Of a stretch of 64,000 bases of DNA, positions 8,805-47,567 are shown one piece after another (position 1 is the stretch's first letter; every line of letters starts with the position of its first letter). Made by a program: the position numbers and the translations under genes. The DNA comes from Negaprion brevirostris. Lineage: Eukaryota. The notes under the pieces were generated by a model. It was not told the DNA's origin and did no database searches. It saw nothing but the letters and a program-made list of their open reading frames with translations. The stretch lies in contig JARDVH010000110.1 of NCBI GenBank assembly GCA_030324005.1, forward strand, positions 31,195,081-31,259,080. Reading direction: 5' to 3'.

Positions 8805-9812
8805 TTATTGCTCCACTGCAAACCCAACTTTCCCCTTTGGCATGGTGCTGATAGAGGCACTGCTAGTGGAGGGGTTCGCTATGTGTATATCTTCTGTAGA
8901 AATGGAAGAATCTGTTAGAGTTGGAATTACTTTGCCACTCGCTGCTGACTTTCCACATNNNNNNNNNNNNNNNNNNNNNNNNNNNNNNNNNNNNNNNNNN
9001 NNNNNNNNNNNNNNNNNNNNNNNNNNNNNNNNNNNNNNNNNNNNNNNNNNNNNNNNNNCCTTGACTTTGATTATCTCCCATTTTTGAATAGGCCAGGCCA
9101 GTTTCTGTTAGGATCTGACTACAGGGGCAAGCTTGATCCAGCACCTCCTCAGTGACAAGGGTAACCAAAGAACTAATATCTTCACTAATTTGACTCAAAC
9201 TTCTCAGCATTGCTATGTTCATCTGTTGCAGGTTTGTATCTACTTGTTTGAGGCCAACATAAATAGCACCCCATATACTGGACATATCTATCTCAAGAGA
9301 ATTCTGGATCTCAGTGAGGCCAACTTTCAAAGCACTCATCTGGTCTGCCATTCCATCCTGCAAGGCATCCTGCAAGTTTGAAAACATGGAAGCTTGCATG
9401 TCCGCTGTACCATACTTCTCTGAGGCTTGCAGCTTTGCCATGTTGAGTTGCTCAGCTGCATGCACGTCAGTAAAATTAGTATGCATGTATGCTTCAAGAT
9501 CAGCCATGGCAGCTTGTAGATCCCCACTGATTGCATTCTTAGCCTCTTGGAGCCCCAAGAACACAGCCTGAATATTCAGATCAAGCAGATCATGTGGCAC
9601 TACAACTTGCATCTGATGACACCTACGTAGCCTTGTGGATGGTCTAGAAACTGCTTCCTCCATCAGCTGTGCTACAACTGCTTGTTCTGAGGTGACTAGC
9701 TGCATTGATCGCTCCTGTGCTGAAGGTGACTGTGTTGTTTCTTGAGCCCCTCTTGTGGTTATCTTGATGCTTGATTTGGCTGGCCTCTCCAGCACCAATG
9801 GAACCGGCACAT
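8805..9812 (-). CDS. Intact large exon-like ORF with a coiled-coil region resembling the Harbinger Myb/SANT (ORF2) C-terminus; candidate terminal exon of the TRIM gene
   Basis: Acceptor gtttctttctatccgagcag|AT (phase 1). About 250 stop-free codons run to the gap at 9058 (DVPVPLVLE...LGLQEAKNAISGDLQAAMADLEA...). After the gap an open S/T-rich frame reads CGKSAASGKVIPTLTDSSISTEDIHIANPSTSSASISTMPKGKVGFAVEQ*, with AATAAA overlapping the stop. Frame across the gap is unverified. Confidence 0.6.
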
Positions 9813-10065
9813 CTGCTCGGATAGAAAGAAACAAGCATGAAACTATCATTCAGCCAGCTGAGGACGGAGCTGTTGCCTCCAAACTCGAAAACAGTGTCAT
9901 CTAAAATGGATCTGATAGTAACATGGGGGATAATGATAGATAAAGCAACCTGTTATCATTGACAGCAGGAAGCAGTGAAAATTGCTGTTCAAGATGAAGA
10001 GAAGAACATGGTAATGATGAAAGCTCAGGTCTGATTATGATAATGGCACCAAATGAAGAGCTCAC

Positions 10066-10135
10066 TGATAGCCTCCTCTCGACAGAGGAGAAGTATTTTG
10101 AGCAAGGCTTGATATAACGGCAGCTGCAGTAGTAT
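10066..10135 (-). other. Candidate 70-nt exon
   Basis: gtttctgctgtatag|AT ACT ACT...TAT CA|gtgagc. All three frames are open. The phase-1 frame gives (D)TTAAAVISSLAQNTSPLSRGGY. Usage unproven. Confidence 0.3.
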
Positions 10136-12117
10136 CTATACAGCAGAAACAATGTGCATAAAATAGGATAAAATAGTTACTGAAACTACTCTGACCACTA
10201 ACTCAAGTTTAATAGTTAAAATGTTGTTTAACTATGAAGGAGCAACCTCAAAGCTTTGGGATATGGCCAGTGTGAAAGATTTCAACATCCTAAACATAAA
10301 GTGTACAGGACAAAGATAGTTGAAAGGGTAGGGTTGTTGTGTTCTTACAATCATAATTTCCACATGAAGCCAATAAGATCAGGCATATCACTAAACTAAT
10401 ATCCTTCAACTTCAGCCAGAGATAGTTAGACTCCAGGGCGTGTAATTTGGGTTCATAGAATTCAAATCTCCCTCCACCCAAAGGAAGGAAGTCAGTACAG
10501 AGTGTTACTTTCCTCCTAGTTGTGTAAACTACATTGTTTTTTAGCTAGATTGTAATTTCCCTGATATCGTGAGGGTCCAGGTAATAACTCCTCAGAAATC
10601 CTTCCCTCATCAAAGGGGAAAGGAATTGTGTTCATGGGGTGTTTGATACAGAAGGTTAGATGAAAAAATTTAAGTTTTAAGTAATCACATGGGGTGTGNN
10701 NNNNNNNNNNNNNNNNNNNNNNNNNNNNNNNNNNNNNNNNNNNNNNNNNNNNNNNNNNNNNNNNNNNNNNNNNNNNNNNNNNNNNNNNNNNNNNNNNNAT
10801 GAAAAAATTTAAGTTTTAAGTAAACACATGGGGTGTGATCTTATTGGCCATTCACCACAGCAACCCCCCTCTCTGCTGCTGCAGCCAGGACAGAGAATTT
10901 GGCACCCAGCCAAATCTCCATTCACTGCAGCAGGACCAGAAAATCCCACTGACATGAACAGCCATAAGATCCCGCCCACAAATCTTATATTCTGAAAAGC
11001 CTGCAACTTTTTGGCTATGCAAAGAGTATAAATTGCAACACTTTCATAATATCCAGAAAAGATAACTAGCTCTTATTTCTATGAGAGAATCCCAAGTGTA
11101 AATTTTTCCTTCATACAAATACTAGACTTTGAAAGAAAAGTTGGACATCCATTAAAATCAAGGTATGTCAACTTGACCCCGAGAGTGCGAGACTATTTAG
11201 GATGGATCTCACATGGAAGTGACCCTGACAACACTCTGGTCATCCAAATGACACAGGGATATTTATAACTAATTTTTGGTGTTATATAATTAAAAGATGG
11301 CATGGAAGGCGGTCATTTGCTCAGTACCACCCATTATCCCAATTTAGGTGAGAAGACCATCTTTTTATAATTAGTTCATTATAATATACTACAATGATAA
11401 TAATTGTTATAATAATTGCCCATGCAATTTCTAAGGAATGTTTTTTCTGAATTTATTCTTGAAATGTTAGGGCTGTATAATGGTCATGTTGGTCAAACAC
11501 TCAGTCAACATATGGCATAATAAGATAATAAGACTTGAGGCCTGGTGTTCCTTTATCAGATTTTGGTTGTATTTGTTCAAACAAGCATTGTTTTTATTAC
11601 AACTGATTTTATCAGCATGGTTCCCCTGAAATTAGGGTGGGTGAGGATTGTAGAATGGCATTCCCCCTTGGCCTCAGGCACAATCTTACAAGATTCAGGT
11701 GGCCATGCCAGTAAAATCAGGGCCTAAATGCGAGTTGTCATTGCAAGGACCACTGATATGAAGGGAATGGACCGTGCATTTGCTTGGTCAACTTTGCTCT
11801 TAGAAAATGCAACTAACTGAAGGTTTTACTGAAAAGTAGTTTTTAAATTAATTAATTGTGACATTGAGCCTTCGGTCTAGATCATTCTCCTCAAAAACTG
11901 ACTTAACTTCATGAGTTTTAGCCAGTATTGTAGTGTCCAGCTCAACTTATGTTGGCTGATGGCCAGAGCCATGTGATAAAAAAAAGGCTGAGGTTGTGGT
12001 ATTGGAATGCTGCAGTAAGGAAGTGGAACTTTAATAAAATATTGTTCTGAGCGGTCAGATCATGTTGACCTCTCAAGAGGATTGTAGAATTGGCTCTTGA
12101 ACCAAAACGGTTTTGAA

Positions 12118-12222
12118 ATAAATCCTCCATCTCCCAAGTTTGGATGTGTGCACCGTATTTATTTATAATCCACATAATTAAATACGGTGCACATATCCAA
12201 ACTTGGGAGATGGAGGATTTAT
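12118..12222. repeat. Near-perfect 44-bp inverted repeat (hairpin)
   Basis: 12118-12161 pairs with 12179-12222 at 43/44 positions; 17-nt AT-rich loop. Confidence 0.95.
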
Positions 12223-12784
12223 AAAACATTTATAATGATAAATATAGCTGAGGCAACAACATTTCAGCTTCTTTCTTTGCCAAGAAGTTGAGCTAGTGTG
12301 AGGGTTTATTATTTTGCCCTTTTTTCAAGTCTTGTCTGAGATGTTGGTGTTTTGCTCCTTTTCTGACTGTGTTTCTTGTTCTGTAGTGTCAACCCTCTGG
12401 GTATTACCTGCCTTGTCCTTAGGTCACCTGTGAAGCCAATTCGTGAGGTGCTGTCAGGAATCTTGGGTTGGAGAGTACATTGTTGGTGCCTCAATTATTT
12501 CTGTGTCCGCTTTTCGAGCTGGCTCTTGGAAGACAGAGTATGACTACATGTTGCATAGTTCCTCCATCAATGTTATCTTTAGGACCACTTTTGAAGTTGT
12601 CTATGTGGGCAGTTTGAAGAGATTGCTTGCCGTATTTCTGCTTAGAAAATAGTTATTCTGTTCATTTGTTAATTACTGCATGTACCTTGACAGTTCTTTT
12701 TGCCACTGCGGCCTTAAGCCAAATCTTTATTCAACTTCCATTCCTGAGCCCGCTCTCCTTCCACAAGTACAAATTAATTTGGGT

Positions 12785-12896
12785 TTATAATGTTGCTTTT
12801 TGTTTGTTCCAAGGCATATCTAACGTTGCAGCTTCAGTATATCGTACTGTCTTTTGCTCAAGGGAAATAGGTAATGATTCTTCTGGAACAGGAGTC
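12785..12896 (-). other. Candidate alternative terminal exon (phase 2)
   Basis: tcctattcattcag|G ACT CCT...TTA TAA, translating TPVPEESLPISLEQKTVRYTEAATLDMPWNKQKATL*. AATAAA at 12726-12731 (minus). Phase-compatible with exon 6. Confidence 0.28.
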
Positions 12897-13166
12897 CTGA
12901 ATGAATAGGATGTTCTGAAAACTTTATATTGCTGTCCTCATCCCAGTTGGGGATTGCAGAGGTGTTCCAGTTTTAGTTAGCATTAAAGAGCCATCACATC
13001 AAATTCAGAATTTGTTAGTGACATTATTCTGTTAGTGACATGAGAGGTACTTATTTAATTCCCTCCNNNNNNNNNNNNNNNNNNNNNNNNNNNNNNNNNN
13101 NNNNNNNNNNNNNNNNNNNNNNNNNNNNNNNNNNNNNNNNNNNNNNNNNNNNNNNNNNNNNNNNNN

Positions 13167-13420
13167 ATTCTCTTAAGGTAAACGTGCAGATTCAATCAGC
13201 AGTTAGGAAGGCAAATGCAATGTTAGCATTCATGTCGAGAGGACGAGAATACAAGAGCAAGGGATTTACTTTTGAGGCTGTTTAAGGCTCTCATTTGGAG
13301 TATTGTGAGCAGTTTTAGGCTCCATATCTAAGAAAGGATGTGCTGGCCTTGAATAGGGTCCAAAGGAGGTTCACAAGAATGGTCCCTGGAATGAATAACT
13401 TTTGTATGAGGAACGGTTGA
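13167..13420 (+). mobile_element. CR1 LINE fragment
   Basis: SLKVNVQIQSAVRKANAMLAFMSRG peptide. Confidence 0.85.
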
Positions 13421-13770
13421 CATAGTTGAAACAAAACGTTAAACAAAATAAATGAATGAAATAGTTCTAATGTGGACAAAGTTTTAAATGAAGATTGATT
13501 TATCAAGCTCATAGGAATAGCATTGCAGTAGGATAACAATATTTGAAGATTTAGCACAAAATAGAAATGATGAAAGAAGCAATTTTACAGCAAATTCGGT
13601 GCAATAGAGTAAAAGTTACAATTACTACTGGTTCCATGCCAAATAGCAAATCGATATATACCAAATTGTTTAATAATTGTTTAATATGCAGCAATGATTC
13701 ACAATCAAAGATTTTAGTTTTCCAGTCATAAAATGTAACAGGAAAATGATAAGAAAAAATTTATGCTCAT

Positions 13771-13896
13771 TCTAAATGCCACTTCAAGCTGAGAATTTGG
13801 GCTTGGTCTGCAATCAATCACTTCAGCTCTTGTCTTCAATTCTTCAAGAAGGAATGCCAGACCGTTATCTCTGAGAGTAATGGCCTCACGGTTATC
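13771..13896 (-). pseudogene. Possible degenerate Myb/SANT-like N-terminal helix segment abutting the Gypsy 3' LTR
   Basis: DNREAITLRDNGLAFLLEELKTRAEVIDCRPSPNSQLEVAF resembles the APRFSDxxLExLLExVxxRRxVL start of Harbinger Myb proteins. The CxKKxxDL helix is not seen. Confidence 0.3.
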
Positions 13897-16453
13897 TGTA
13901 ATATCTTGAAGCAGTAGCCAGTTTGTTGCAAAAAAAAACATAAACTTTATTGGGAATACATGTGGAGGTATTTACAGATTCATTGCTATTTTGCTGCCTG
14001 GGGCAGGCACTGACGGCCTCTGCTGGTTGATTGGCAGGATGGAGGGGAACCCACTCCCATTATTACATTTCATTTCCCCCCTTAAATTCCTTACACAATT
14101 ACATAACATTTGTCATGTCTCTTGGCTTTAACTTCCCCTCTTCTACAAACCAAGCCTCTGAGGTGCGCTGAGGGGTCGTCAGAGAAACAGATGCATCACT
14201 AGAACTTGGTGGTTCTGTATTCAACAGCTCAATGGGTCTATCAGGAATGATAGTTGCAGGGTAACTATCACCTCAGAGGTTGACAGCAAAACATCAATCA
14301 CAGATTGGCCATTTCTTCATTGGAATCTTTCTCTTACTCGATCCACAGTCTGTGCACTACATTGTCCTCAAATTCAAAATGGCAATGGACCCATTTCTGA
14401 AATGGTGGCTCCAGGAGTCCAGCACATCCACTTCCAAAGATCCGTTCATACATGGGATTGCCTACTTTGAATGTGTGGACACTACTGTTGTGCTGTGGTT
14501 TAGCTTCTGATCACATTCATTCTCTCTCACCTCCCCCTCCAATTTGCGAACCACACAGATAAGTGCGCAATCGACGTTTCATCATCAGCTTTGACGGCGT
14601 GGAGCCAGTACTATTCTGTGCTGTTGTGAGCTAAGTTAGAAAGAACCTGGAAAGATGAGCCTCCAAAGTACCTTCAGAAGACTTCTTCAACCTGCTTTAA
14701 AAGTGTGGACAGTTCTTTCAGCAAGATCATTTGACAAAGGATGTCTGACAGCAGTCTTGCAATGTCAGGTGCCATTCAGGTCTGTGAGCCTCTTAATTTC
14801 TGTGCTGATGAAAGCTGTTCCACTGTCACAGACAATGATCTCAGGCAACCCATGTATACTAAAGGAGTGACACAGCTTCTCAATAGTAGCAGCTGAAGTT
14901 GGTGTCTTTATATCATAGTTATCAAATCACTTGACCTGAGGACAGCAAAGCCACTTCCATGGGTGAAGAAGAGCTGAAGGATGCCGCCTCTGGTGCTGCT
15001 GGCAAAGGGAACAATGATTAACCATGTCCTCAATGTCACTGTCTTATCCCTGGCTCCAGACATACCTGGGTGTGCGCTACGGAATTCTGCTATCAGTGCC
15101 TCTCTTCCCAGGGAAGGGACTATGATTCTGGGACCCCACAGCAAGATGCTGTTCTAAAATCTCAATTCAGTGCTTCTAGAATAACAGGGGTGGACGTCAT
15201 CAGATTCAAAAGTACTTAGCTAATCTTGTAAAACAAAGTTTGCTCATTTTTGACAAAACTGGGTTTCTGCCCATCCAATTCTTCATTTGTTTAGTACATA
15301 CAGGCGTTGAATCCAAGAAATTTAACAACACAAATCCTTGATGAACAGACATGTTATCCAGACTACCTGGTAATGGAAAATGACAAAGTGTGTCTGCATT
15401 GGCTATGTATATACGAGCAGGGATAGAGTATGAATGTATACTCATAAGCTGGTAGCATCAAATCCCAACACTGGATTCTTGCTGAAGTTATAAGTGGAAT
15501 AGCTTTGCATTTGCTGAATAAGCCTGTCAGTGATTTATGGTCAGACACAAGTGTAAAATGTTGCCCATGAAACTTCTTGACACCGAATACATGGACAAAG
15601 CTTTCTTCTTCAGATGGCAGTATCCCTTTTCAGCCTGGGCGTGCTCTTGAAATGCAGCTGATGGGTTTTTCTAACCCATCCTCCATTCAATGGGACAGTA
15701 CGGTTGCAATGCCATAAAAAGGAGCGTCACATCTCAGTGCCAGCTCTTTAGTGAGGTTATAATGTACCACCAATACAGCCGTCAGTACAAACCCTTTCTT
15801 TAAATCCAGCTGCCTTTGCAGCTTATCAGCTTTCACTGATTGCAAGCTTCACTCTTTCCGGAATATCAGTGGTCATGGGTCACTTTTGCTCCTGGATAAG
15901 TCTGCCCACTGTTAAAATTGCTTTTGTTGAAAAAACAGTGCAGCAGTCACTGCCTTTAAACCCCACAGGTTTGAATGTATTTTTCTTTTCTTTGTGATTT
16001 GAACTGTGGGTGTGATACCCTTTAAGGTTGTGATTTGCTGGTTTTGTGTTTTCCCTGCACTTCAAGGAATCATGGGTTGCTCTGTTATTATTTTACTTCT
16101 AACAAAACTTTTGAAACCTTTTGCCATTTTAAAACTGCAGCAATTCTGTCCTGTGTGATTCTGGCCCTCTGCAGGAACCAGGTGAGGCCTGTTCTTTGTT
16201 CTCCTGTCCTTTGTCAACTATGCAGGACCCCACCATCCCCAAACTTGAGGGTACTCACTGCCATGGCATAGTATGCAGCATTAGTCAAACTTAACCTTGT
16301 TGTCAGTTTGGCAGGAGCCAGTTTGATGCAAACAAACTGGCAACACGCATGGACATAGTTACAGGTCGTCGCCATCTTGCTGCCCAGGGCAGGCACTATC
16401 TGTGCCTGCCAATTGCTTAGCAAGACGGTGAGGCAACCACACCCATTACTACA
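13897..16453 (-). mobile_element. Decayed Gypsy/Ty3 LTR retrotransposon with both LTRs (internally deleted)
   Basis: 3' LTR at 13897-14067 (tgtaata...tattaca) with a polypurine tract next to it. Homologous 5' LTR at ~16298-16453 (shared gcag.agccagtttg.tgcaaa, ttgctgcc..gggcaggcact, cccatta.taca). RNase H motifs CDAPFYGIATVLSH and SDHKSLTGLF...SARIQCW. Integrase motifs LLWGPRIIVP...HPGMS and GLPEIIVCDSGTAF. Many stops. Confidence 0.9.
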
Positions 16454-25572: not shown

Positions 25573-25631
25573 CTTTGGAAAATAGAGATGTGTACTGAGC
25601 TCTTCTGATGTCCCCGCTTCCTACAGTTTTC
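25573..25631 (-). CDS. Probable TRIM coding exon 7 (59 nt)
   Basis: ttctttatcatag|G AAA...AAA G|gtactt. Translates (L)KTVGSGDIRRAQYTSLFSK. Phase 2-1, continues exon 6 and ends in phase 1 like the exon that normally precedes the terminal TRIM exon. Confidence 0.62.
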
Positions 25632-27194: not shown

Positions 27195-27273
27195 AGCGAT
27201 TCAGGCAAATTTTCTTCCTCATTCTCATCTTCCATTGCAAATCTTTCTTCCACCACTTCATCATTTGACTGAA
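27195..27273 (-). CDS. Probable TRIM coding exon 6 (79 nt, acidic linker)
   Basis: poly-T+ag|TT CAG...TCG CT|gtaagt. Translates (V)QSNDEVVEERFAMEDENEEENLPES(L). Phase 1-2, fits the exon 5 output, strong splice sites. Confidence 0.72.
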
Positions 27274-32658: not shown

Positions 32659-35194
32659 TTACAAATTACTTTGAGTAAAACCAATTATTTTGGTAAGTAA
32701 GTACTACCTTTGTCCTTCCTTTCCCTTTTAATGTTAAAAAGCTTATGATTAGGTAATTGATTTTCATGCTTTGAATCACAGTTATGTTTCCTCTGGTAAT
32801 GTGCTTTTTATTACAAGGTACTTTGCTTCATATAATGCTTTTCCCTCTGTTTAAGTTTGATATCAATGCCAACATCATTGTTCTGCAGTTATCTTTTCAC
32901 TTTAAGACTGCTAAATGCTTACTGCCTATCTCAGGGGTCACATTACACATAAATACAGAATCTTTATCATATGTCTTTTCCACCTTCTTTAAGTACTACT
33001 TAAGCCTCCATAAAACATGTAATTTGTCTTATTCAACAAATACACCGCATTTCACGTATCTACGTCTAACTCCCACACAATAATTATTTGCCTTATAAGA
33101 CAATTTGGGTAGCCTGTCAGCTAGAATTTCTTTCTGACTTGATGTTCCCTACTTTATTTCATCTTCCATATGAATGATAGCTATGCCCTTCCATTTGTCA
33201 TCTTCTAAAGCCTCAAATTTTAACACCAATAAATTGTTTGTTATTTCCCTCCATATTATTTTTCCAATGACTGAAGTATTTTACCAGCTATAGAAGTTTC
33301 ATTCCTCACTACTCTAACGTGCCTAACAGTTGATCTATCAATAAACATTTACCCTTTTCTCATTCTCTAAAAGGACATTCATAATATACCTGTTTCTTGA
33401 TGATTTAAATATACAAAAACACATTGGGGTGGATTTTCTCGCCCAATTCGTGATGGGGGAATCTCTAAAATCGACTGAGTAAGAACAAGACACGTACAAT
33501 GGAATGTGAAAATGGGACTGTGAGATTTTAACCCTTTCTGCTGAACTGCAGTCATCTTCAAGTTCTGAGCTGCAGGAAGTTGATGCTTGCTGTATGCTAT
33601 TGAATTCTATTGGGAGATTTATCTTATGGCGGTGCCGTAAGGTGATGGGTAGATCTATTAAAATCAACTGGCCAGGACTAATAACTGGACACAAATCCTA
33701 TTTGGATGCAAATTCTGGCGAGAGAGGCCCAAAATGGAATTTGTACCGGCGTAAGCTCAGATTGCAATTTGCCCGGGCCCTTCCAGCTATTATGATCAGA
33801 ATCTCACCCAGAAAGGGNNNNNNNNNNTGATTTGAATTCATCTGAATATACTGTATCTCATTCCCAAGGTTAAAATCAGATGGTCCAGCCAATTGGAATC
33901 TTCCAGCCCATCAGCGAGATGTCTTGTGGACACCAATGACTATTGTTCCCAGAAACAGGGACCTGGCCCTAAAGACTGTGAGAAGATGGGAAGAAGTGAG
34001 TGCTGCCCCACATTTACTTCCAGGGCAAAGCAGCCACTGGCCAGATCTCGACAGTCCTTCGTGAGAGCCAGGGGTGTGACTCGTGCTGGGCTGGAGGGGG
34101 CCAAACCGTAGTTCTCCACAATAATGGGAGTAGCAATGGGTCTGTGCAGCCTTGAGATTTGCCTTCTTTATGGTTTAACACACTTTAACAACGCAAGCAC
34201 AAGTATGGACCTGTCTGACCTAAAATCCTCCCACACGACATTCTGCAGCTTGTCTCATAGAGAATCATTTTATATCCCTTAAAGTTTCAAAAGGCTCTGT
34301 GGCTTCACTGTTGCAGTCTGACTACTTTTATTCCTTTGCAGTTACTTGTTAATGTCCAATTTCACACCCCAATAACTATTAGGAGACTCTGTGATCTGCC
34401 TGAGATAGTGTGCCAATATTAAATCTTTTGTGGTTGTTCATTTAAATTCAATTTCACATCCCATCAACTTTTACAAGCTTTATAAAATTAACCAGCTGCT
34501 GTCTGCCTCATAGTGCTATTGAAATTGTTTGTTTATTCAGCTTTTCATGCCCCATTAACTTTTAAGAGCTTTTTTGGATGCACACCTGAGCTGTGGCTGA
34601 ATTCAGATGTTTTTCTAAAGGGATTTTTCACTTCCATCCAAGCAGCTGGCTGAACTCAGTCATTAGAATGCAGGGGTTGTTCAAGGAAGACCTCACAGCT
34701 GCTGTTGAACTTTCAGGCTGAACCCCAGAACATTGGGCAGAATATTTCACTGCCAGAGTTTGGCTGCCAATAGCCCTGGGAGATCAAGGCTCCTGATTTG
34801 AGTGGAAGGAAGTAATAAGACTGAAGTTTGGCAGCCTAAGGGGCTGGTTGCTTATCACCCAGAGAATGTGAGACAATAATGTTCGGGGCTGGTGGGGAGG
34901 TGGGAATATGCACTATTGAGTTTTAAATCACGGGTCATGCAGTGGCTGTCCAGGTGGATGAAGTGCAGAGACATGACAACAATAAGATTGCGAGATGTCA
35001 AAGCCTAAGTATCCACTTTGCCTATTAGTGTTGCCCTTCTCTGCCTCTGAGTGTACAAGTGCTTTTTTACATTCTTGCGAGTCATGTTCATCCAACCAAT
35101 TGGCCATCGTCATTTATCCGTCACCAATCTCAGCTGCCCTCATGCTCCACTGCCCTCATGCTCCACGTCAGGGTTAGGGGTTCAATTCTTAAGT

Positions 35195-35259
35195 GTCAAG
35201 GAGTGAATGCTGGTTGCCAGGATTCCACCTTGCCTGGCAACCAGCATTCACTCCTTGAC
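35195..35259. repeat. Perfect 27-bp inverted repeat at the centre of a larger palindrome (~35040-35445)
   Basis: gtcaaggagtgaatgctggttgccagg / cctggcaaccagcattcactccttgac with an 11-nt loop. Outer arms at ~35041-35113 and ~35368-35445. Confidence 0.93.
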
Positions 35260-35759
35260 TTTGAGCANNNNNNNNNNNNNNNNNNNNNNNNNNNNNNNNN
35301 NNNNNNNNNNNNNNNNNNNNNNNNNNNNNNNNNNNNNNNNNNNNNNNNNNNNNNNNNNNNNNNNNNNATGATGATGGCCAATTGGTTGGACGAACATGAC
35401 TCGCAAGAATGTAAAAAAGCACATGTGCACTCAGACGCAGAGGAGTAGGTGACCATGTGCCCAAACACATGATAGTCCCTATTCTTGCTGATGTAAAGGG
35501 AGGGAATAACCAGAGGAGGAGCCTGTCAGCAGTGTGAAGGGGCAGAGGCAGTGACTGAGATTGTTGAAGTGACGATGTCCTATGGGCAGCAACTAATTGA
35601 TGTAGAGCTGGCTGCGAGAGATGGTGTAGAGTTGTCAGCTTCCAGGATCATGAGAACTAAGGGTGCTGGGAGGAATTGAGGGTCATGGGATGGATGACCT
35701 TACTGACCAATTGTCTGTCTCTCTCTCTCTCCTCTCATTCATCCCAGATTAGTGACATT

Positions 35760-36510
35760 ATGAGCCTGTAGAGCTGGTGATAACCCGAATTACTGCTCTG
35801 GAGGTGGATGTAATGCCAACTCTGACAAGCCCAATCCAGAATGCAGCCTCTGCAGTAGGAGGCCACAGGTCAGGATTAAGATCTGGCAGCCCCTCAGACT
35901 GAGGAGCAGGGGTCAAAGAGACTGCAGAAGGAGTTCTTGGGTTGACAGGACCTATACGTCCCTCACTGACCTGCTGGACACCATGTGCTGCCAAAGTCTT
36001 CAGTTAACCAAGGTGAGAGCATGGCACATCTGCGTCAGTGTGGGACCTGACACCTCATGGGGTAGGACACCTGCTCCCAGTGGCCTACAAATTCATGGCA
36101 GCCCTGAACTCTTTTGCTGCTGGATCAGTTCAGAAATTATGACTGATGACGCCACTGTGTAGGCCTGAGACCGAGTGGAATCTTGTTGTAATGCCATACA
36201 GACAGTAATCAGATGGTGCATAAGGTTAATGAGATGCACTTCCACTGTTTGGACTGCTCTAGCAGTTCTCCTCTGGAAGCCTCAACCTCTGGGTTGTTGT
36301 AGTTTGCTATGCCCTCCATAAACTAACATGGCAGCAAGGTGACATGCTGGAGGAGGAAGAGGAAGACCGTGTCACTTCCTCCGATGAGGAGGTGGACCAG
36401 GAGGGTGAGCCCAAAGAGGACCCAGAGGAAGGAAGGCAGGCAGCTAGGGTGCGATGGGCCAGGAGGACCAGGAAGGTCCTGATCGCCGCCAGATCTCAGA
36501 TTAGGAGGCT
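35760..36510 (+). pseudogene. Harbinger DDE transposase remnant
   Basis: VAYKFMAALNSFAAGSVQ (compare HARBI1-type ALxFYATGSFQ), MHFHCLDCS (compare MRFRCLDRS), VVVCYALHKL (compare IVACCVLHN), followed by an acidic tail LEEEEEDR. Internally deleted. Confidence 0.8.
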
Positions 36511-37049
36511 TGGCATCTGGCAGCTCCATTACCCCTGTATCCTTCAACTGCACCCCACTAATAGAGCCTCCTCCTCTCCCCCCAGCCATCGACCCCCACC
36601 ACCACTCACCCATGACTGGACCTGGGTTGCCAGTGACAGTAACTCACTTGTCAAGGCAGGAAGGTGATGACGACTTGCTGTGAGGGAAGCTCTGATGCTC
36701 CTCAGATTCTGCTTATGTCTGACTCCTGTCTGTCTGTGCTGATTGCACACTGACTCCCAAATTCATGTGTCAGGGTTAACGGTACATTCTTTATCACTAA
36801 GGGGGAAAAGGGAGAAGGTTAAGCGTACGGTGAGTGATGAAGCACTCATTCCAGGGTGTATGTCACTGAGGGTCACCGTTGGGATTGGTTGTAGGGCCTG
36901 CAGGAGGATCTGCATTCTGGGGTCAAAAACAGGGATGTTGTGGTTTTGAGGAGAAAACTTCTTTAAAATGGTGAATCTTAAATTATCAAGTCCCTTATTA
37001 ACAGTGTCTGACTTCACCTGTGCCCAGTCTGTGTTCCAAAAACTTTCTA

Positions 37050-38762
37050 ATTTTACATGGCTTACCACTATACCAACGTGTCTCCCCAGGATGTTGCACC
37101 AGAAGTGGAAGAGGCCTTTGCCTTTTGTGTGCCTTATAGCTTGAAATGCCCTTGGCGGATGTCCTCTGCAGGTCCTAGACCCAGAAGGACCCAGCCAGCT
37201 TTCAGGGTTCCATCACTGTCCTGACATGCACAAGAAGGGGGGATTCAGAGGAGCTGGAGACTAAGTGTTGCCTTGATGGAAGGCCCTGGGATTGTCTCCA
37301 GTGCTTCCTCCTCTCTTGGGAGCTAGGCTACTCCATAGGATGGAGGGGCAGTTGGAGTGAGGTCCAGAAGCCTCTGTGTCGTCTGGCGCTGTCAGTCCTG
37401 ACATTGTCTAAACCAGGTTTTTGAAGCCCTCAGCAAAGGCCCTCGGTGTCTGGACCATGATTCTATATGAGTTGGCCATGCTCTGGAGGCCCTCAGCCAT
37501 GGTCCTCAAACACTGCTCCATGCCTTAAACTCCTCCACTCAAGGCTTAGACATCCTGCCTGAGGCATTTCACTGCTGTCACCACCCTTGCAGTGTTGGCC
37601 TGGGCGCCACACAATGCTGGCAGCATCTCCTGCAACTGAAGGCTTTGCGGCACCTCCAATTGGCCTCCAGTTGTGGGAATTTCACTGACAATCCCGCATA
37701 GATTTCCCAGCTCTGCCTTTGCATCACCAGCAGTTCAGGAAGGAACATGTCCAGGGACACGGAATCTAGCTAAGACACAACTATGTCCTGGATTTAGCAG
37801 ATCTCTGCCCGCCTGATCCCTGGGATGTTGTTGTCTCCATCTAAAGTGTATCAGCATTGTGTGGTACTGATCACATGATGACCCAGAAGCTTGCCTAAGA
37901 TTGTCCACCGAGGTGTATGTCTCTGCGACAGTGGATGGTGCGGATGAAAATTGTGGTGCCTCTTCAGTTTTCCTTGGAGATCTGCTCTGCAGTGTTGTCA
38001 AGGGTGGACGATACCTCTAGATGGCCCGGCCTCATCTTGCAGTGATTCTACAAGACAAGGGACAGTTTCAGTAAATGGGAAGGACAACAGTCCGGCATTC
38101 AACAGCTCATTTGAGACAGGTCACCTGGATTAAAGGGGAAGTGGATCCACATTTCTCTGGTGCAGGCCAACTTCACTGTCAGTCATAGCTCGCTCCTGGC
38201 CTTCCCCTGTGATCCCCATAGAACTTTCTTCATAGGGGGTGCGGAGTCTGAACTCAGGCATGCCCCCATCCATCTTCACCCTTCCCCTTTATTATGGGAT
38301 GTCTTCTCCTGTGGAGAAACAAAGAGGACATTATGGGCTGAATGCCTGGCAGTTCGAGAGTCTATAGCACATGGCATATGTGGGCATCACGCTGTGACAG
38401 AAAGGGTTTTTGATGAAAAGTGCTGGTTCCGAGGAAGATGCTGGGAGGTCAGGTATCAGGAAGCTGCAGGGTGGTAATGGGTGGATCAAGGACACATTCT
38501 GTAGGCACCAGGGGGAGACAGGTGGTCACTCACCCTTGTAGCACGTAGAAGGTCATTCGTCTTCTTGTGGCATTGGGCCCCCAGCTTCTTTGTGCTGGTG
38601 GCACAAGCTATAACTGCCATCACCTCTAGGCAGTGTTAGCAATCTTACTTGGGGTGTCCCTTCAAATCATGAGTAAAGGGTGCCCTGCCTCTCCTGTGCT
38701 GCGTCCAAAAGCCTGGGCAGGTCGCCGACCAAGAAACATGAAGCAGGTCTCCTTGCAGCTAT
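37050..38762 (-). pseudogene. Harbinger Myb/SANT-like (ORF2) gene remnant with introns
   Basis: Exon 1 (38534-38762): ARRPASCFLVGDLPRLLDAAQERQGTLY...CLEVMAVIACATSTKKLGAQCHKKTNDLLRATR|gtgagt, start codon reads ATA. Exon 2 from 38308: EKTSHNKG..DGGMPEFRLRTP. The last exon carries heptads (LLVMQRQSWEIYAGLS...MAEGLQSMA). Confidence 0.82.
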
Positions 38763-39351
38763 CCTCAGGTGCTGGGGCATCATTTAAATGCAATTCCCCT
38801 CTTGTTGGCTGTGCTTAGCTGAGCCCCAATTGGGCAAATCAGATGCGTGGGGCCTCTAGCTTGGCATATTTCACTTAGTCATTTATTTGACTGGTTAGGA
38901 CGATCGCGATTGGGATCCTGCCGAATAGGCTGGCGGGAATCGCACTGTGTTTCCTCCCCAAAATGACACTTGGGAGAATTCCACCTGTTATTTTAGACTG
39001 ATTTTCACCTTTTGCATCTTTTCTGTTTTACATTTGGGTTTATTATTGTTTACTGAATTTCAATTAATGTGTCTACATGGCAGTTTTTTAGGTTCCTTTG
39101 TTCAACATTTTTTTATGTGAGTTCTCTTTGTCTTATCTTTTTTAACTTCTGTATACAAATTCCTTTGTGATCATTTTCTAAATTAACCTCCCTCCTTATA
39201 TGTCTGTTCTATTCAAATTGGTACTACCTATACAAGAGACTATAAATTACATGTATTAAAATATACTTTTATTTTGCACTTACGTACGTATCAATTCTTC
39301 TAAAATGTGGATCACCTAATCAAACTCAACTAATCAGAGCCAACTACTTAC

Positions 39352-39488
39352 CAGGGTGGTCAAAAATGATGGTGTTTAACATCTCAAAGATTCGCTTGGT
39401 CTCCTGTTTGATGGTTGAAATTGTGGTCTCATCCAGTTTCTTCCAGGACACCTTCAGTTTCTCTACCTCAGTATTGTTGTTAGAGATC
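39352..39488 (-). CDS. TRIM coding exon 5 (137 nt, linker helix)
   Basis: aatttcag|G ATC...CCT G|gtaagt. Translates ISNNNTEVEKLKVSWKKLDETTISTIKQETKRIFEMLNTIIFDHP. Phase 2-1 with a consensus donor. Confidence 0.88.
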
Positions 39489-40419: not shown

Positions 40420-40945
40420 AAGTTAGTAAGGTTTTAAAATGGGTGAAAGGGGTGGGGGGGGGGGGGGGCGTGGCGAAAAAGCAAAAGGGAAGGTCCTAAT
40501 AGGACTGGAGATAGGAGACATTAAATGACACTAGAGTTGGTGCAGTGCCAAAGAGGGTGGTAATCAAACAAATAAAAAAAATCAAAAGATGTAACCAGAG
40601 GAGGTGGGAAAGGCAATGTAATAAACAGCTGCCATCTGAAAACAAAGGTAAATAAATAGAATGAAACCAAAATATGCAAATAATTAAAAGGAAACAAAAT
40701 GCCAGCAGAGGTTCTTCCACCACCTCCAGATCACCATCTTTCCCTTTTGTCCTTTTTTTCTAACATTCTGTACACAAACTTATCACATTTTTAACATTTC
40801 CAATTTCTGGTAGAGGGTCTTCAACCTGACTGACATGTTAACGCTGTTTCTCTCTCCACAGACACTGACTAACCTGTTCTGTCGAGTACTTCCAGCACTT
40901 TCTATTTTTATTTCAGATTTCCAGCATCTTCAGGATTTTGCTTTT
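40420..40945. repeat. Penelope-like terminal-repeat remnants (also ~39985-40055)
   Basis: caggcagcatttgtggagagagaaacagag and its inverse tgtttctctctccacagacactgact...ttccagcactttctattttta. Confidence 0.5.
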
Positions 40946-41128
40946 GAGATAGTCTGATAAACTTGCTTTCAAGGCCTTCACCACGTGTAATTTTTATACT
41001 AGTGGAGCCTGATCCAAGGTATTTTCCCGAGGGTTCTAGGATTAATCCTTCTCCACTTGCCCCATAAGTACAACTTATCACACCTTAGCCCTTTTCTTTG
41101 TGCTTTCTAACATTAGCTAAAATCCTAC

Positions 41129-41151
41129 CTTTCATAAGTAGATTTGAAATC
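41129..41151 (-). CDS. TRIM coding exon 4 (23 nt microexon)
   Basis: gtcttttgcag|GATTTCAAATCTACTTATGAAAG|gtagga, translating DFKSTYE(R). The 23-nt phase 0-2 exon is typical of TRIM genes and bridges exons 3 and 5 exactly. Confidence 0.88.
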
Positions 41152-42434
41152 CTGCAAAAGACATCAAAATAATTTAAATGCAGTTGAAGGACAAATTATA
41201 GATGACATCTTTCTCATTAACATACAACAATGAAATTTAAGAAGTTGAGGACTTCATAATTAAAATTTTCTATTGGATGTACATTAATATTGTTTTGAAA
41301 ATTCATCTTCACACTATTATAAAACATGAATATGTATGTTATGATACACATGTAAATATGTCAATTACTGTTGTTACTGCAACAGGCCTACTGAGATGGA
41401 AAAAAAAGTGATTTCAGAGCAACAGTATTGCAAAAGTCCAATCAATGGTTCACATGTTTTATAATATAATTTAGTTTTAGGAATTAACTGCAGATAAATG
41501 GGGGCATCTGGTTGAGAAACAAATGGTGGNNNNNNNNNNNNNNNNNNNNNNNNNNNNNNNNNNNNNNNNNNNNNNNNNNNNNNNNNNNNNNNNNNNNNNN
41601 NNNNNNNNNNNNNNNNNNNNNNNNNNNNNGGCGGCAGGGGTGTGGTGGAGGGAGGGAGTAATGTGGAAGGGAGGCTTGGGTAGAATGTTGTTTTCTTTAA
41701 TTGATGTGTGCGTTTGCTGACAGAAGCAGCCAGTTACGTTTGCACTGGCTTACTCTAGTGGAAGAAAGAAATTAGCCTGAATAGTTAGCCTGGAAAGAAC
41801 TATACCGAAGCTGTAAAACAGACTGAGAGCAGTCTGTGCACGTCCAAAGTCAGGACGAGGAACTGAAGAATACATAGTCATAGCCTTTGAAGAAATTTGA
41901 TGGATCGCTTAGCCAAAAGCTAATGGAAGGATCCTCATGAAATTTGTACCTTGGAGGATAACAGAAGCATAACAGCAAAAATATCAATCACTGTTATTGC
42001 AATAGGATTACCCAAACTAAAATTTTCTAATGTTAGAGCTACGCTGTGTGCACTAGTGTCTTTTATTTTCCCCTTGGACAATATATCCTCAGAAGGAATC
42101 AATACAACATCTTTCTTTTACTTAAAAAAATTGCTAATATCCTTCTATTTCCCAGAAGCTGAGGAAAGCAAACTCTTCTTCAGTGCAATTCCCTGCCCAT
42201 AAGTAAGGAAGACTATCAAATATACAAAAATATCAGACTGGAAAAGACCGGCTGGCCAATGTAGCCTGTCTCATATAATTGTGAGATGTTATGAATCAAA
42301 TCATGAGACTGCCTATCCTCCCTTGACATGTTGTCTCCTGGTAGAGGCAAACAGAAGACCAAAGCAAAAACTCAAAGCTGATTGATAAATCTGGAAATTT
42401 CCTCTCTGATCTCTTTCAGAAATCCAAATTTGTC

Positions 42435-43698
42435 CAAGAAGGCTACTCTCCATTGGTTGGAGTCAAACCTCACAAAGGAAGATAGTTTTGATTGTTGGAG
42501 GTTAATTGTCTGAGCCTCAGACATCACCAAAGGAGTTTCTCTGGGTTGCTTCCTGGGTCTAACCATCTTCAATTGATTCATCAATTATCTTCCTTCCATC
42601 ATACAATCAGAAAGTCACTCACTGATCATTGCACAATGTTCAGTACCATTCATAGTCCTCAGACATTGAAGCTGTCCAGATCATATGCAGCAAGACTTAA
42701 ACAATGTTCAGACTTGGATGAAGTGGCAAGAAACATTTGTGTTACGTAAGTACCAGGCAATGATTATCTCCAGCAAGAGGGAATCTAACCATCTCTTCTT
42801 GACATTCAATAGCTTTACCATTGCTGAATCCACCACTATCAATATCCTGTGTTTATCCTTAACCAGAAGCTTAAATGGACAACTATATAAATACTATAGC
42901 TACAAGATCAGGTGAGAGGCTTGGAATTCTGGGACAAATCATTCGCCTCTTGTCCCCTTCAAAGTCTGTCCACCAACTACAAGGCACAAGTCAAGAGCGT
43001 GTATAAATATTCTCCACTTGTCTAGATAGAGTTCAACTGTAACAACCCTCAACAGATTCAACATATAAGGGATGGGTTAATAGACCTTCCAATTAAGTCC
43101 TAATTTGATGTCAATTATTCAACAGAAGTCACTGGTCTATAAAGGGGCTACAACTGTCATTGGGTGTTGGGAGAGAATTGTATGTGGAGTTGGATCAAAG
43201 AAATAAAGGTAGTTTATGAAGAAGCAGAATTTGTGCCTTCTTTATAACTGAGAGGCTCAAACACAACAGCCTCAAGCACAAAGGAGCTTTCTTGACCAGT
43301 ACTCTATCCATCACCTGAAACATTCCCTCTCTTCCCCTACCACTGATAAATAGTGGCATCAGTGTACAATTCACAAGATGTCCTGCAGCAATTCATCAAG
43401 CCTTCTTCAACAGCACCTTCCATCTTGAAGAACAAGGGCAGCAAATGCACATGACCTGCAAGTTCCCCTTTAAGCCACACACACCATTCTGACTTGGAAC
43501 TACATCACCATTCATTCCCTGTTGCTGGGTCAAAACCTTGGAACTCTCTTCCTACCAGCACTATAGTTGTACCTGCTCCAGGTAGACTGCAGCAGATCAA
43601 GAAGGTGACTCGCCATCACCCTCTCAAGGGCAATTAGGAAAAGACACCAAATGCTAGCCATAGCAGTGACACACACATCCCATGGATGAATAAAAAAA
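42435..43698 (+). mobile_element. L2/CR1-group LINE 3' portion (RT remnant + tail)
   Basis: WLESNL.QRK..IVGG and the LF..FINxL.S.IxSE..xTDxCT region. Tail cacatcccatggatgaataaaaaaa. Interrupted at ~43070-43270. Confidence 0.8.
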
Positions 43699-44446
43699 GT
43701 TGGTCCATGATATTCATTCATTGGTAACTACTTTTTTACAATATGACCATCACCACACCAGAAAGCAGTCTAAACCTCTATTGAAAGTTTACAGTAAATC
43801 AACAGATGAGAGAGTCCTAGTGGTGATTTTACATAGCCTTTTCCTTTCTAAAGTCATAGGAAGTTCTCAACTCCATGCCTCTCTCCAGCAGTGCAACTGA
43901 GGTCAATAAATCAGTGAAGCATGGGATACACTGCACAACAAAACCTGTCTTGCTCACAACCAACCTCCTGCTCCATTCCCAGCCCCCTGCAGCCCAATAT
44001 GTGTGTGGGTGGTGACAATCTCAGACTTCACAGATTGCTGTTTTAACAGAGAGCAGTGACTTACCTACTTTATATTTATAAACATGATCTAATTGAGAAC
44101 CCTGAACATATTAATGAGTTTGTGTCTGTATCATTTGTAAACCAAGCTTTTATAAATCTGAATTCATCCACTTCAGTATCATCAGAATGCATGGAGAATA
44201 TCACACACTGTTATGAATATTTTAAATTGAAACCAAATCATTAGCAGTATACTGTCACAATTGAAAAGGGTAAATAAGAAGGAAGAGTTAAATTAAACAG
44301 CAGCAATTAGGTGAGACAAAAAATGGGCTTTAAAAAGCCTGACTGAGCGTTGTAGTAGGAAATAAGAACTGAGGTGGCGGCGGATACAAAGAGTTTCTCA
44401 GCTTTGCTATATATGCGCTTTATAAAGTTGTCACTGTTTCCAGGGG

Positions 44447-44735
44447 TCAATCATGAGGGGACATAGTTTTACAGTAAGGGGCAGGAGATTGAGAGGGGAT
44501 TTGAGAAAAAACATTTTCACTCAGAAGGTGATGGGAATCTGGGATGCACTGTCTGGGAAGGTAGTGGAGGCCAGAAACCTTACAAACTTTAAGAAGTATT
44601 TGGATGAGCACTTGAAACAGCAGAATATTCAAGGATATGGGGCAAGTGCTGGAAAATGGGATCAGAGTGGTTATTGTCAGTGTAGACTCGATGGGCTGAA
44701 GGGTCTTTTCTGTGCTGTGTGATGCTATGACCATG
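44447..44735 (+). mobile_element. CR1 LINE 3' end in TRIM intron
   Basis: RGHSFTVRGRRLRGDLRKNIFTQKVMGIWDALS; tail tgtgctgtgtgatgctatga. Confidence 0.9.
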
Positions 44736-44892
44736 ACTTTGCATTCTTAGGTAACCAGCTGGTGTCAAATTCTGTTTGAAAGAACATTGACAAGTAAGTA
44801 CCAGCACTGAAAAACTACCTAAAAGAGCATACTAACTCCATTTCATGAAAGCAGTGATGTAAAAAAGTGAATAAAGTTGAATCTACTATTAC

Positions 44893-45126
44893 CTTAATAA
44901 AGAATAATGGATCTTTTTGATTTTTCAGGTCTTGTACCTCCTGAATAAGATGAGTAATCACTTCTCTTTTAATTTCCAATTCTTGGATTTTCTTTAAGAC
45001 TTTCGAAAGATTTATATTTTTTTCTGTTATAACTGTGTCTAAGATTTGCTTTTCTTGTTTGGTCAGCAGCATTCTAATTTCCTGGAACAAGTCTGAAATT
45101 TGTTTTCTCAAAACAGCACTATCTTT
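44893..45126 (-). CDS. TRIM coding exon 3 (234 nt, coiled coil)
   Basis: tttcattacag|AAA...AAG|gtaata. Translates KDSAVLRKQISDLFQEIRMLLTKQEKQIL...QKDPLFFIK. Canonical 231-234 nt TRIM exon. Confidence 0.95.
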
Positions 45127-45374
45127 CTGTAATGAAAGAAAAATAATTCTCATTAAAGAGTAAGGATTTAAATCATTGATTCTGCCTTTCGCAGTAATAT
45201 CAATTAATGGATGGTAATGTCTGTCTTCCCTCAAACCCGAGATTTAGCAGCTATCAAGCCACTGAAGAAGAATTATCGTTTTCTTGTCACCATGCTATAA
45301 ATACGGTTATAAGAAATCTTTTTGTGCAGAAACTTTGATGAAATGATGCTTCAGATAGACTAATGCTAATCCAT

Positions 45375-46500
45375 GCATATTTTCTACTGTAAGCATGTAG
45401 GAATATAGGAAACTGAATAGGTTATTTAGTCTGTCCCAGCATTCAATAAGATCATGGCTCATCTGCGACCTAACTCCACATGGTCTCCCTTGTCTCATAT
45501 TTCTTAATACTTTTAGTTAAAAGACACTTTTTTAATTTCAGCTTTAAAGTTAACAATTGACCTAGCACCAACTGCCTTTTCTTGGCAAAAAGTTCTAAAC
45601 TTCCTGAGAGGGAGGGAACATCATTAAATCACTGGCAAGGGGCAGGGAAAATCAGAGAATGAGATCCCGCTGTGACGATTCTTATTCTCAAGGTCTCATG
45701 GAATTTTTACTATTTTCACCCATAGCAAATGTCAAAAGTCACCTCCACCACCACCCCCATCCCCATCAACATCTTTGTGCATCAGGAAACTTGTGGCTCT
45801 CTTCTCCAACATCAAAGTTGCTCATGGTTGAAGCCCCAACATGCATTTTGGTGGACACCCAATTTGTATTCCACTAATTAGAGTAGCTACCCATTATCCT
45901 TGCACTTTTTCATAGAAACACAGAAAATAGGAGCAGGAATAGGACTTTTGGGCCTTTAGGCCTGCCCCACACCATTCATTATGATCAAGGCTGATCATCC
46001 AACTCAGTAACCTAATTCTGCTTTCCACCCGTATCCTTGGATGCCTTTAGCCCCAAGAGCTAAAGCTAACTCCTTCTTGAAAACATACAATGTTTTTGGC
46101 CTCACTGCTTTTTGTGGTAGAGAATTGCACAGGCTGTCTGGGTGAATAAATTCCACCTTATCAGTCCTAGATGGTCTAACACATATCCTTCTAACACTGT
46201 GATCGCTGGGTCTGAACTACCCCACCATTGCAAATATTCTTCCTGCATTTACCCTGTCTAGTCCTATTTCAATGAGATCTCATTTACCTTCTGGTAATGA
46301 TCCAATGACTCTATTCTCAGAACAGCAGGGGAGGCTTCTATAAGATTCCTTTATATTCCAGTGAATATAACCCTAATCGACTCAATTTCTCCTCATAAAT
46401 CAATCCCACCATTCCATGAATCAGACTAGTAATCCTACACAGAATTCCCTCTATCACAAGAATATTCTTCCTCAGATAAGGAGACCAAAGTTGCACACGG
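45375..46500 (-). mobile_element. Two CR1 3' fragments (~45375-45605, ~45911-46500) with intervening MITE-like sequence
   Basis: CR1 tails (cattcaataagatcatggct; catagaaacacagaaaataggagcagg) and ggagaccaaagttgcacac. Confidence 0.75.
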
Positions 46501-46771
46501 TACCTGCATGATTTGCATGCGCCTCATGTATTTAATTAAATAACTAAAAATAACCATTTTAGCTGCCTGTGTTTTTTTTCTTTGTGGGATTCACATTAAA
46601 CATGGTTCCTTTGGAGTTTATCAAAGAGGAATATGTGCATTATCTCGAAGATCCCAAACATTTGAGTTTTTGAGCAAATCAACAAGACAGCTCTACGTAA
46701 GCATTTAAGTTGCAGTTTCATGTGAATTATATCAAAAATCAGATGGATATTTTCAGAATAAACACAAATAC

Positions 46772-46867
46772 CTTTAAGTTCATTTCTGTTCCTTGCAGCT
46801 CTTTCGTAGCTTCCTCTAAATTTGCTCTGCAACTCTGCAGCTTCTCCAGTTTTTCTGAAAGGCTGGC
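46772..46867 (-). CDS. TRIM coding exon 2 (96 nt, coiled coil)
   Basis: caacag|GCC...AAG|gtattt. Translates ASLSEKLEKLQSCRANLEEATKELQGTEMNLK. A 96-nt phase 0-0 exon is the canonical second coding exon of TRIM genes. Confidence 0.93.
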
Positions 46868-46988
46868 CTGTTGATGTAATTTTTATAGTGATGCCAGTTA
46901 CAATATATCAAAAGTTGGCATATTTAATTATCTCTCAAATGAATGAAGTTTTTTCAAAGCCTAAATATTCAGTACAATGCTCTCTTAC

Positions 46989-47567
46989 CTTTGTCTCATT
47001 ATGTATGTCTTTTAAAATGCGTATGTCGTGGTTCTTGTGTGGACCAGCAACATAACATGTTACACAAATACAGGAGTGGTCATCTAAGCAGTAATATTCA
47101 ATGAGCTTCTCATGATCTGAACATTTTCTGTCTTCCAGCGAACTTGCAGGCTCAATCAGTAGGTGATTTTTCTGAGCTGTTTTCTCAGAGTGCTTTCTCA
47201 AGTGATGCTCACATAAAGATGCTTCACAGTTCATGCATGTTTTGACTGCAGGGAGGGGATTATCCAAACAGAAATCACAGAAGATCTTAGGTGGTTCCTC
47301 ATTCATCTGTGTGGCTTCAAAACGTTCTATTATGTTACTCAATTTCAAATTTTTGTGCAGCACGGGCTTTTGAGCATATTCAGCTCGGCACTCTGGGCAC
47401 GAGTAGCCAGGCCCTGTGTCTTTCTTGTCCCAGTTCTTTTCAATGCAACTACGACAGAAATTATGCCCACAGGACAAGGAAACTGGTTCTGTGTAAATAT
47501 TCCAGCAAATTGAACAATTTAATTCTTCTTTCAAATTACCAACAGCTGAAGTAGAAGCCATTTTCAT
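46989..47567 (-). CDS. TRIM (TRIM25/finTRIM-like) E3 ligase, first coding exon: RING + B-box1 + B-box2
   Basis: Translation MKMASTSAVGNLKEELNCSICWNIYTEPVSLSCGHNFCRSCI...CPECR is a C3HC4 RING, followed by CDFCLDNPLPAVKTCMNCEASLCEHH (B-box1) and CSDHEKLIEYYCLDDHSCICVTC...HKNH (B-box2). Donor AAG|gtaaga, 579 nt, phase 0. An acceptor ctcttcctcag lies 2 nt before the ATG, implying an upstream non-coding exon that I did not locate. Confidence 0.97.

Follow-up and report, generated by a model that had tools for sequence, protein, structure and literature searches.

The window analysed here is a 64,000-nt stretch of contig JARDVH010000110.1 of Negaprion brevirostris (G000:C110:31195081-31259080, where C-numbers denote contigs of the genome G000), and its minus strand carries a TRIM gene that is conserved among sharks, lacks a PRY/SPRY domain and has an alternative helical end. 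Both the gene and the splice that joins its seventh exon to the helical one (25573->9812) are real, and databases already contain the protein as an unnamed model. Homologous phase-1 last exons end the TRIM gene and two unrelated genes, one of an immunoglobulin (Ig)/multi-pass type and one of a tumour necrosis factor receptor (TNFR) type; this reuse is new, and the C-terminal domain itself is without family or name. The interpretation that we put forward, in which confidence and doubt are about evenly balanced, is that this ligase can end in an exon likely captured from the Myb-like gene (open reading frame 2, ORF2) of an old Harbinger-type transposon, and that the exon likely serves as an oligomerising or scaffolding tail.

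The constant part of the gene consists of seven minus-strand exons, all bounded by AG/GT splice sites, which encode 402 amino acids (aa) and end in phase 1 at 25573, in keeping with the chain of about 402 aa proposed in the initial annotation. Exon 1 (46989..47567; 579 nt, 193 aa) provides the ATG, the RING and B-boxes 1 and 2, as recognised by Pfam, and is identical to three shark orthologues at 193/193, 193/193 and 191/193 positions. The coiled coil is encoded by exon 2 (46772..46867; 96 nt), placed by splice sites and orthologues, and exon 3 (44893..45126; 234 nt), placed by Pfam and splice sites. These are followed by exon 4 (41129..41151; 23 nt, reading DFKSTYE in agreement with orthologues), the linker-coding exon 5 (39352..39488; 137 nt; splice sites), the acidic exon 6 (27195..27273; 79 nt; splice sites and orthologues), and exon 7 (25573..25631; 59 nt), which closes with the phase-1 donor. 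The product therefore runs RING, B-box 1, B-box 2, coiled coil and acidic linker, with no PRY/SPRY, and the RING, B-boxes and coiled coil (RBCC) that define a TRIM protein are found in order by Pfam. Here zf-C3HC4 and zf-B_box score above the cut-off and TRIM_CC weakly, below it, while ANCHR-like_BBOX lies above the cut-off in one scan and slightly below it in another.

Exon 8 in its long form (8805..9812, minus strand) is an alternative last exon, delineated by orthologues and bridging contigs, that encodes a serine/threonine/proline-rich linker, a helical core (9112..9660), a poorly conserved tail and a stop codon at 8805-8807, overlapped by an AATAAA (8804..8809). Its acceptor at 9812 is in phase 1 and the junction reads YTSLFSK-DVPVPLVLER in frame, so that the join and the stop under AATAAA stand as first described. 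The description of 8805-9812 as one intact frame does not hold, as 100 N occupy 8959..9058 and the frame taken literally through them terminates at 8863. This run of N is an assembly artefact that contains no real sequence and hides a 3-nt overlap: DNA contigs from two of three near-identical runs (X8 and X9; X7 lacks a bridge) join 9059 directly to 8955, and contigs of relatives (X1, X3, X5) bridge the gap as well. Because X8 and X9 make this join, exon 8 measures 905 nt and the long protein 703 aa, rather than the roughly 740 aa first estimated, with the stop still lying under AATAAA.

The same exon chain is present in other sharks. Three RefSeq isoforms, XP_038651488, XP_072369071 and XP_043559715 (703, 695 and 695 aa; S. 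canicula, S. torazame and C. plagiosum), carry the 25573->9812 join; they are database models, named 'TRIM25-like' or 'uncharacterized', whose read support was not seen. In addition, a 1,906-nt contig of run X3 covers 9814-8733, the whole of exon 8, and its loose end matches the last 30 nt of exon 7 at 26/30 bases. The transcripts anticipated by the initial annotation thus come from isoforms of three species and an RNA-like contig, not from RNA of N. brevirostris itself. No RNA data set is listed as containing this species' own sequence, which carries no implication for its expression. The alternative paths that it had envisaged through acceptors at 13896, 12896 and 10135 fail, since these open only 0-24 codons in the phase-1 frame and are used in 0/14 orthologous proteins.

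Altogether the gene has three alternative endings: long exon 8, exit at an internal donor at 9627 into acidic exons, and omission of exon 8 in favour of the same acidic exons. Among the 14 orthologous proteins, three have the long form, five leave exon 8 at the 9627 donor, two skip it, one ends just past the donor and three end otherwise, so long, short-exon and skipping isoforms coexist in the manner of fusion and parental isoforms. The short form of exon 8 (9627..9812, minus strand; 186 nt, phase 1-1) uses the donor CTAC/GTAGGT and continues into acidic exons; the last exon on this route lies beyond the window, 4.2 kb to its left, at G000:C110:31190740-31190862. The two middle acidic exons were not mapped in the genome; the sequence from exon 8 to that last exon includes 1,930 N, and 1,570 of these adjoin the window on its left side. 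In 4/4 proteins (z 3-11) the first of the acidic downstream exons look duplicated from exons 6-7, and those of proteins P0002-P0005 look like a tandem duplicate of 27195-27273 and 25573-25631. The acidic isoform terminates in T/S-K-S-V, which we take to be a possible PDZ-binding end.

Class IV TRIM proteins (TRIM25/finTRIM type) are characterised by a C-terminal PRY/SPRY (B30.2), a domain that this protein does not have. The initial annotation had seen no B30.2-like frame in 1-25572, and the wider search agrees: near the TRIM locus fall 0/143 genome matches to PRY/SPRY (150/186 candidates scored), and the PRY/SPRY exon of a TRIM paralogue used as query gives no match at E<=1 in the 414 kb around the gene, in which the 200 kb downstream contain 20,343 N. 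The domain was probably lost here, because the closest paralogue, on C150 (exon 1: 50% identical), retains it. The proposal that the helical exon replaced the PRY/SPRY end accordingly survives in part. The join is in frame, conserved in other sharks and belongs to a SPRY-less gene; the helix, however, is one of three endings, and because the gene also has an acidic end, exon 8 is an alternative beside that end and not a simple or sole PRY/SPRY replacement.

Conservation differs sharply along the protein. The RBCC region is 99-100% identical across shark orders (exon 1, 191-193/193 across two orders), while the helical core matches the three orthologues at 148/163, 150/163 and 127/163 positions and the tail of exon 8 at 41/76, 39/76 and 33/76 (Fisher p<=3e-7, core versus tail). 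Purifying selection on the putatively captured part is thus indicated by a proxy, core (78-92%) against tail (43-54%), which is protein identity and not a ratio of nonsynonymous to synonymous substitution (dN/dS). The core has an 11-residue hydrophobic period of 3.66 residues per turn, in the range of 3.62-3.66 seen across all family members, and conserved non-repeat motifs at both ends. It is predicted to form two long unpacked helices (predicted local distance difference test, pLDDT, 69; predicted template modelling score, pTM, 0.37), and a trimer prediction scores 0.24 against a mark of 0.32, without control folds. Foldseek against the PDB gives no match at E<=0.001, and the best match of the core in the ESM Atlas reaches 0.79, where the Ig-gene exon has no usable match. 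Pfam Apolipoprotein gives weak matches below the cut-off.

Genome searches with exon 8 return two single-copy paralogues, on C84 and C157; a word-index search with the core alone recovered 0/860 candidates, despite the existence of these true relatives. The copy on C84 ends a gene whose product combines an Ig domain with several hydrophobic segments, of which five were counted by eye, in a presumably CD47-like layout. The gene is annotated in four sharks and in the ray Narcine and likewise has a second, acidic alternative end. The homology of this copy to exon 8 extends across the 9627 donor, and it retains a basic tail like that of Harbinger ORF2, as judged by eye. This gene (C84:102107-102135 kb, minus strand) is at the end of its chromosome, the one that carries most of the SPRY exons, and near a kinesin-14-like exon that we take to be KIFC1, possibly in the major histocompatibility complex region. 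The C157 copy stands downstream of two intact TNFR cysteine-rich exons, in phase with them (3483.5-3487.2 kb, minus strand), and matches a Logan protein that joins TNFR_c6 to the same helix. In this gappy region no transmembrane or signal exon and no 5′ end were found for the gene, whose product is possibly a soluble, multimerised decoy receptor.

The relationship among the three exons is supported at several levels. Pairwise hhalign probabilities are 99.5% (TRIM-Ig), 96.6% (TRIM-TNFR) and 97.7% (Ig-TNFR), compared with less than 0.4% for reversed sequences. A hidden Markov model (HMM) built from TRIM exons only, and hence non-circular, gives 79-82 bits for Ig and 38 bits for TNFR, whereas none of 142 generic repeat proteins reaches more than 27; the non-circular scores are above those of all 142-143 such proteins. 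All three exons have phase-1 acceptors and an AATAAA downstream. A profile search of 1.84 billion representatives gives 222 matches at E<=0.001, of which seven are full-length, all from the TRIM, Ig and TNFR genes; of the rest, 56 proteins among the 150 listed were scanned, and these either consist of generic 11-mer repeats or had no family; they include ApoA-like and synuclein-like repeats as well as coiled-coil stalks (CCDC90-like, tape measure). Two salamander paralemmin-3 proteins (P0025, P0026), with long 11-mer helical insertions, are the top generic matches.

Weaker candidates with the phase-1 layout occur at C133:24.244 Mb (L159:4004-4804) and C132:772 kb (L173:2196-2966); they are 41% identical and score in the generic range. 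The former lies 3 kb before FAM216B-like exons, at a phase-1 intron position, and no host gene was found for the latter, in a region over half N. Two further loci, L152 and L169, are only possible members, their 87.5% against the family lying inside the generic range. Given that relatives of exon 8 end unrelated genes, a single transposon-type exon has likely been recruited repeatedly, as a protein module that can be plugged into different genes. A literature search, beyond whose reach lay supplements and most subscription journals, found no paper on this gene, the exon family or the reuse of the exon on unrelated genes, and the accessible part of PMC9004415 contains nothing relevant to the gene or family.

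Where the exon came from is a matter of indirect comparison. Harbinger elements are abundant in this genome (5248 nuclease candidates), and Myb/SANT loci end in phase-1 last exons encoding a linker and a helix, the layout that exon 8 shares down to its stop and polyadenylation (poly(A)) signal; architecture alone is no proof of descent. One Myb lineage, marked by 'GPAFKRR', comprises eight exons, five with an upstream Myb domain, and has xxxG[LF]xx 11-mers and many decayed relatives. Matched to the pooled TRIM/Ig/TNFR family, this lineage reaches 92.8% (reversed, 3%); matched to ten generic-repeat sets, it reaches 1-51%. On these comparisons Harbinger ORF2 ancestry of exon 8 is plausible, and we lean slightly towards it. 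The origin first proposed is kept only as a suggestive likeness to a Myb/SANT last-exon lineage, and the heptad-type ORF2 present in the window shows no similarity to exon 8.

That ORF2 belongs to a broken Harbinger copy in intron 5 (35930..39000), with a nuclease remnant on the plus strand and a Myb domain and ORF2 last exon on the minus strand, assigned by profiles and at 74% to the family consensus. It is a member of an abundant family in which the last exon of ORF2 is also phase 1 but built of heptads and not of 11-mers, and it is a bystander, not the source of exon 8. A separate nuclease scrap lies at the left edge of the window (8-112).

The 'GPAFKRR' lineage may itself have been captured elsewhere. 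An intact last exon of this type, 323 codons long (L235:2461-3453; C163:120.82 Mb, minus strand), has no Myb in the 26 kb upstream of it, of which 2,424 positions are N; it follows, at a distance of 25 kb, an LHFPL exon with a phase-1 end (L237:8151-8579). Judged by its sequence, the locus resembles another instance of such a capture; it is a candidate second host-ORF2 fusion whose link to Myb genes is clearer. Another Myb-less exon of the lineage (L238:8436-9068; C106:73.17 Mb, plus strand) is found downstream of a cytidine-deaminase exon, presumably CDADC1-like; the linking exon was not found, and since the deaminase exon, which precedes L214, has a phase-0 end, a direct in-frame join is ruled out. 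Myb/SANT genes that appear intact and have an open last exon occur at several other loci (L045, L047-L053; on C128, C115, C124, C121, C163, C110 and C146); they fall beyond the NAIF1/MSANTD types and are possibly undescribed, shark-specific domesticated Harbinger ORF2 genes. The gene L046/L194 (C59:38.05 Mb) reads to us like MSANTD3. The accessible part of PMC9392472 reports MSANTD3 as absent from cartilaginous fish.

In the sequence of events that we envisage, an element would have inserted in a phase-1 intron of the TRIM gene, and its last exon would have come with a phase-1 acceptor, a stop and a poly(A) signal of its own, creating an in-frame alternative end, after which the remainder of the element decayed. 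The same capture would have taken place independently in phase-1 introns of other genes, and the internal donor would have arisen later to give a linker-only form. The 11-mer helix may self-associate, clustering RING domains, or bind a host partner; the choice of splice would thus decide whether the ligase carries a helical or an acidic tail.

Several observations weigh against this interpretation. Exon 8 compared with heptad-type Harbinger ORF2 last exons gives hhalign values of 0.05-0.7% (0.05% for the type in the window) and HMM scores of at most 2.3 bits. The TRIM exon alone reaches 3.9% against the 'GPAFKRR' lineage, and generic 11-mer sets reach 84-98% against the exon family; by HMMER, family and Myb lineage score 2-19 bits, with generic 11-mer proteins at a median of 11 and a maximum of 30. 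A Myb domain occurs in 0/180 proteins examined, including 150 profile matches. The Myb/SANT tri-helix is absent from the TRIM protein and its flanks, no Pfam transposable element (TE) domain was found in the captured part, and Myb, ORF2 or an adjacent, convergent nuclease remnant flanks 0/5 exons tested, with the nearest nuclease scrap 8.7 kb away; inverted repeats around exon 8 were not searched. Copying of the exon between host genes could also account for its distribution. As for the fusion itself, only 3/14 orthologous proteins have the long form, the Carcharodon, Pristiophorus, Rhincodon and Hemiscyllium entries are without the helix, the Stegostoma entry ends just after the donor, and X3 is a run from a relative that is guessed to be RNA.

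In a distinctly less probable alternative, the exon did not come from a transposon but belonged to chondrichthyan host genes, among which it was copied as a module by exon shuffling, its Myb likeness reflecting convergence of 11-mer amphipathic helices. No specific sequence links it to Harbinger, a Myb domain is found in 0/150 profile matches, and there are only three clear copies, intact and single-copy, with no decayed ones among 11, 18 and 72 scored candidates. Against this alternative, no older donor gene appears among the 1.84 billion representatives, in which the seven full-length matches all come from the three host genes; the phase-1 linker-helix-stop-poly(A) layout is that of Myb-gene last exons in this genome, and the Ig-gene copy has its Harbinger-ORF2-like basic tail. 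Whatever the origin, the main rival to an oligomerising or scaffolding role is lipid-surface binding, which would target the ligase to droplets or curved membranes; we regard this as unlikely. Helices of 11-mers that bind lipid surfaces are known from apolipoproteins, perilipins and synuclein, and the hydrophobic period in all members, the weak Apolipoprotein matches, the many ApoA-like and synuclein-like profile matches, and the model of two unpacked helices would fit such a role, but the same profile matches include coiled-coil stalks, and the motifs at both ends of the core suggest a specific protein interface.

Two further alternatives are very improbable. The initial annotation had speculated about transposon defence, with the captured helix recognising Harbinger proteins and targeting them for ubiquitination; in its favour, the abundance of Harbinger copies and the precedent of TE-domain capture by ubiquitin-ligase adaptors (PMC12062965, accessible part) could be cited. 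This idea is not supported, because the tri-helix Myb motif, credited with DNA and protein binding in the accessible part of PMC9392472, is absent from the fusion, the TRIM is nearly invariant, unlike an arms-race gene, and membrane and TNFR-type proteins, which have no ligase, carry this exon at their end too; moreover, the abundant Harbinger family has heptad and not 11-mer repeats. Alternatively, the long form might arise by reading through the internal donor without consequence, only the short exon and acidic end being of importance; this would suit the use of the donor in 5/14 orthologous proteins, the two that skip the exon, and the five genera without the long form among the entries retrieved. 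Yet a 300-codon frame is open in four species, the core is far better conserved than the tail, and the homology with the Ig-gene exon spans the donor. At the other extreme, an improbable extension of the capture model would have a Harbinger ORF2 last exon captured repeatedly in cartilaginous fishes (TRIM, Ig/multi-pass, TNFR-type, perhaps FAM216B, LHFPL and more), as a self-binding module wiring an E3 ligase to membrane and receptor proteins: a shark-specific homotypic domain switched by alternative last exons.

Among the remaining features of the locus, the neighbours of the TRIM gene read, in translation, as PPARGC1B-like upstream and PDE6-like and SLC26A2-like downstream. Around an assembly gap, the stretch 35036-35445 contains inverted arms of 78 nt and a perfect hairpin of 27 nt, which probably represent the end of a small element or an artefact of assembly.

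Comparable gene architectures are known. TRIMCyp, zebrafish ftr52 (RanBD/cyclophilin) and the chromodomain finTRIM (PMC3137616, accessible part) are likewise RBCC genes in which the B30.2 end was replaced by an unrelated domain on new exons; the shark end differs in being an unannotated 11-mer helix without known ligand, used beside an acidic end, and, unlike TRIMCyp-like restriction factors, which evolve rapidly, the shark RBCC is nearly invariant across orders. KRABINER, SETMAR and PGBD3-CSB likewise acquired an alternative last exon through an element's own acceptor with the parental isoform kept, whereas the shark piece is a non-catalytic, non-DNA-binding helix of putative transposon origin (10.1101/2020.05.07.082677, accessible part). 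That survey concerns tetrapods and Pfam transposase domains, and its main text, as accessible, has neither 'Harbinger' nor 'shark'. NAIF1 and MSANTD1-4 likely derive from the same source gene, ORF2, repeatedly reused in jawed vertebrates, but are stand-alone genes that keep Myb/SANT, in contrast to a last exon on its own on unrelated host genes (PMC9392472, accessible part). The F-box::HTH and F-box::CxC7 fusions also pair a ubiquitin-ligase component with a transposon-derived domain proposed as a protein-interaction surface; they are multicopy with recognisable TE domains, whereas the shark TRIM is single-copy and shares its module with non-ligase genes (PMC12062965, accessible part). The three RefSeq entries represent the same protein, under names that do not note the occurrence of its C-terminal domain on other genes.

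A last exon without Pfam match on at least three unrelated genes points to gene innovation that is invisible to domain-based surveys, and the Ig-gene copy has been kept since before the split of sharks and rays. If the exon is Harbinger-derived, transposon capture would extend from transposases and DNA-binding domains to a non-catalytic ORF2 tail, and orphan phase-1 linker-helix last exons would provide a screening rule for vertebrate genomes. The shark TRIM, which is nearly invariant, has no SPRY and can exchange its tails, also offers a direct test of partner change in TRIM ligases.

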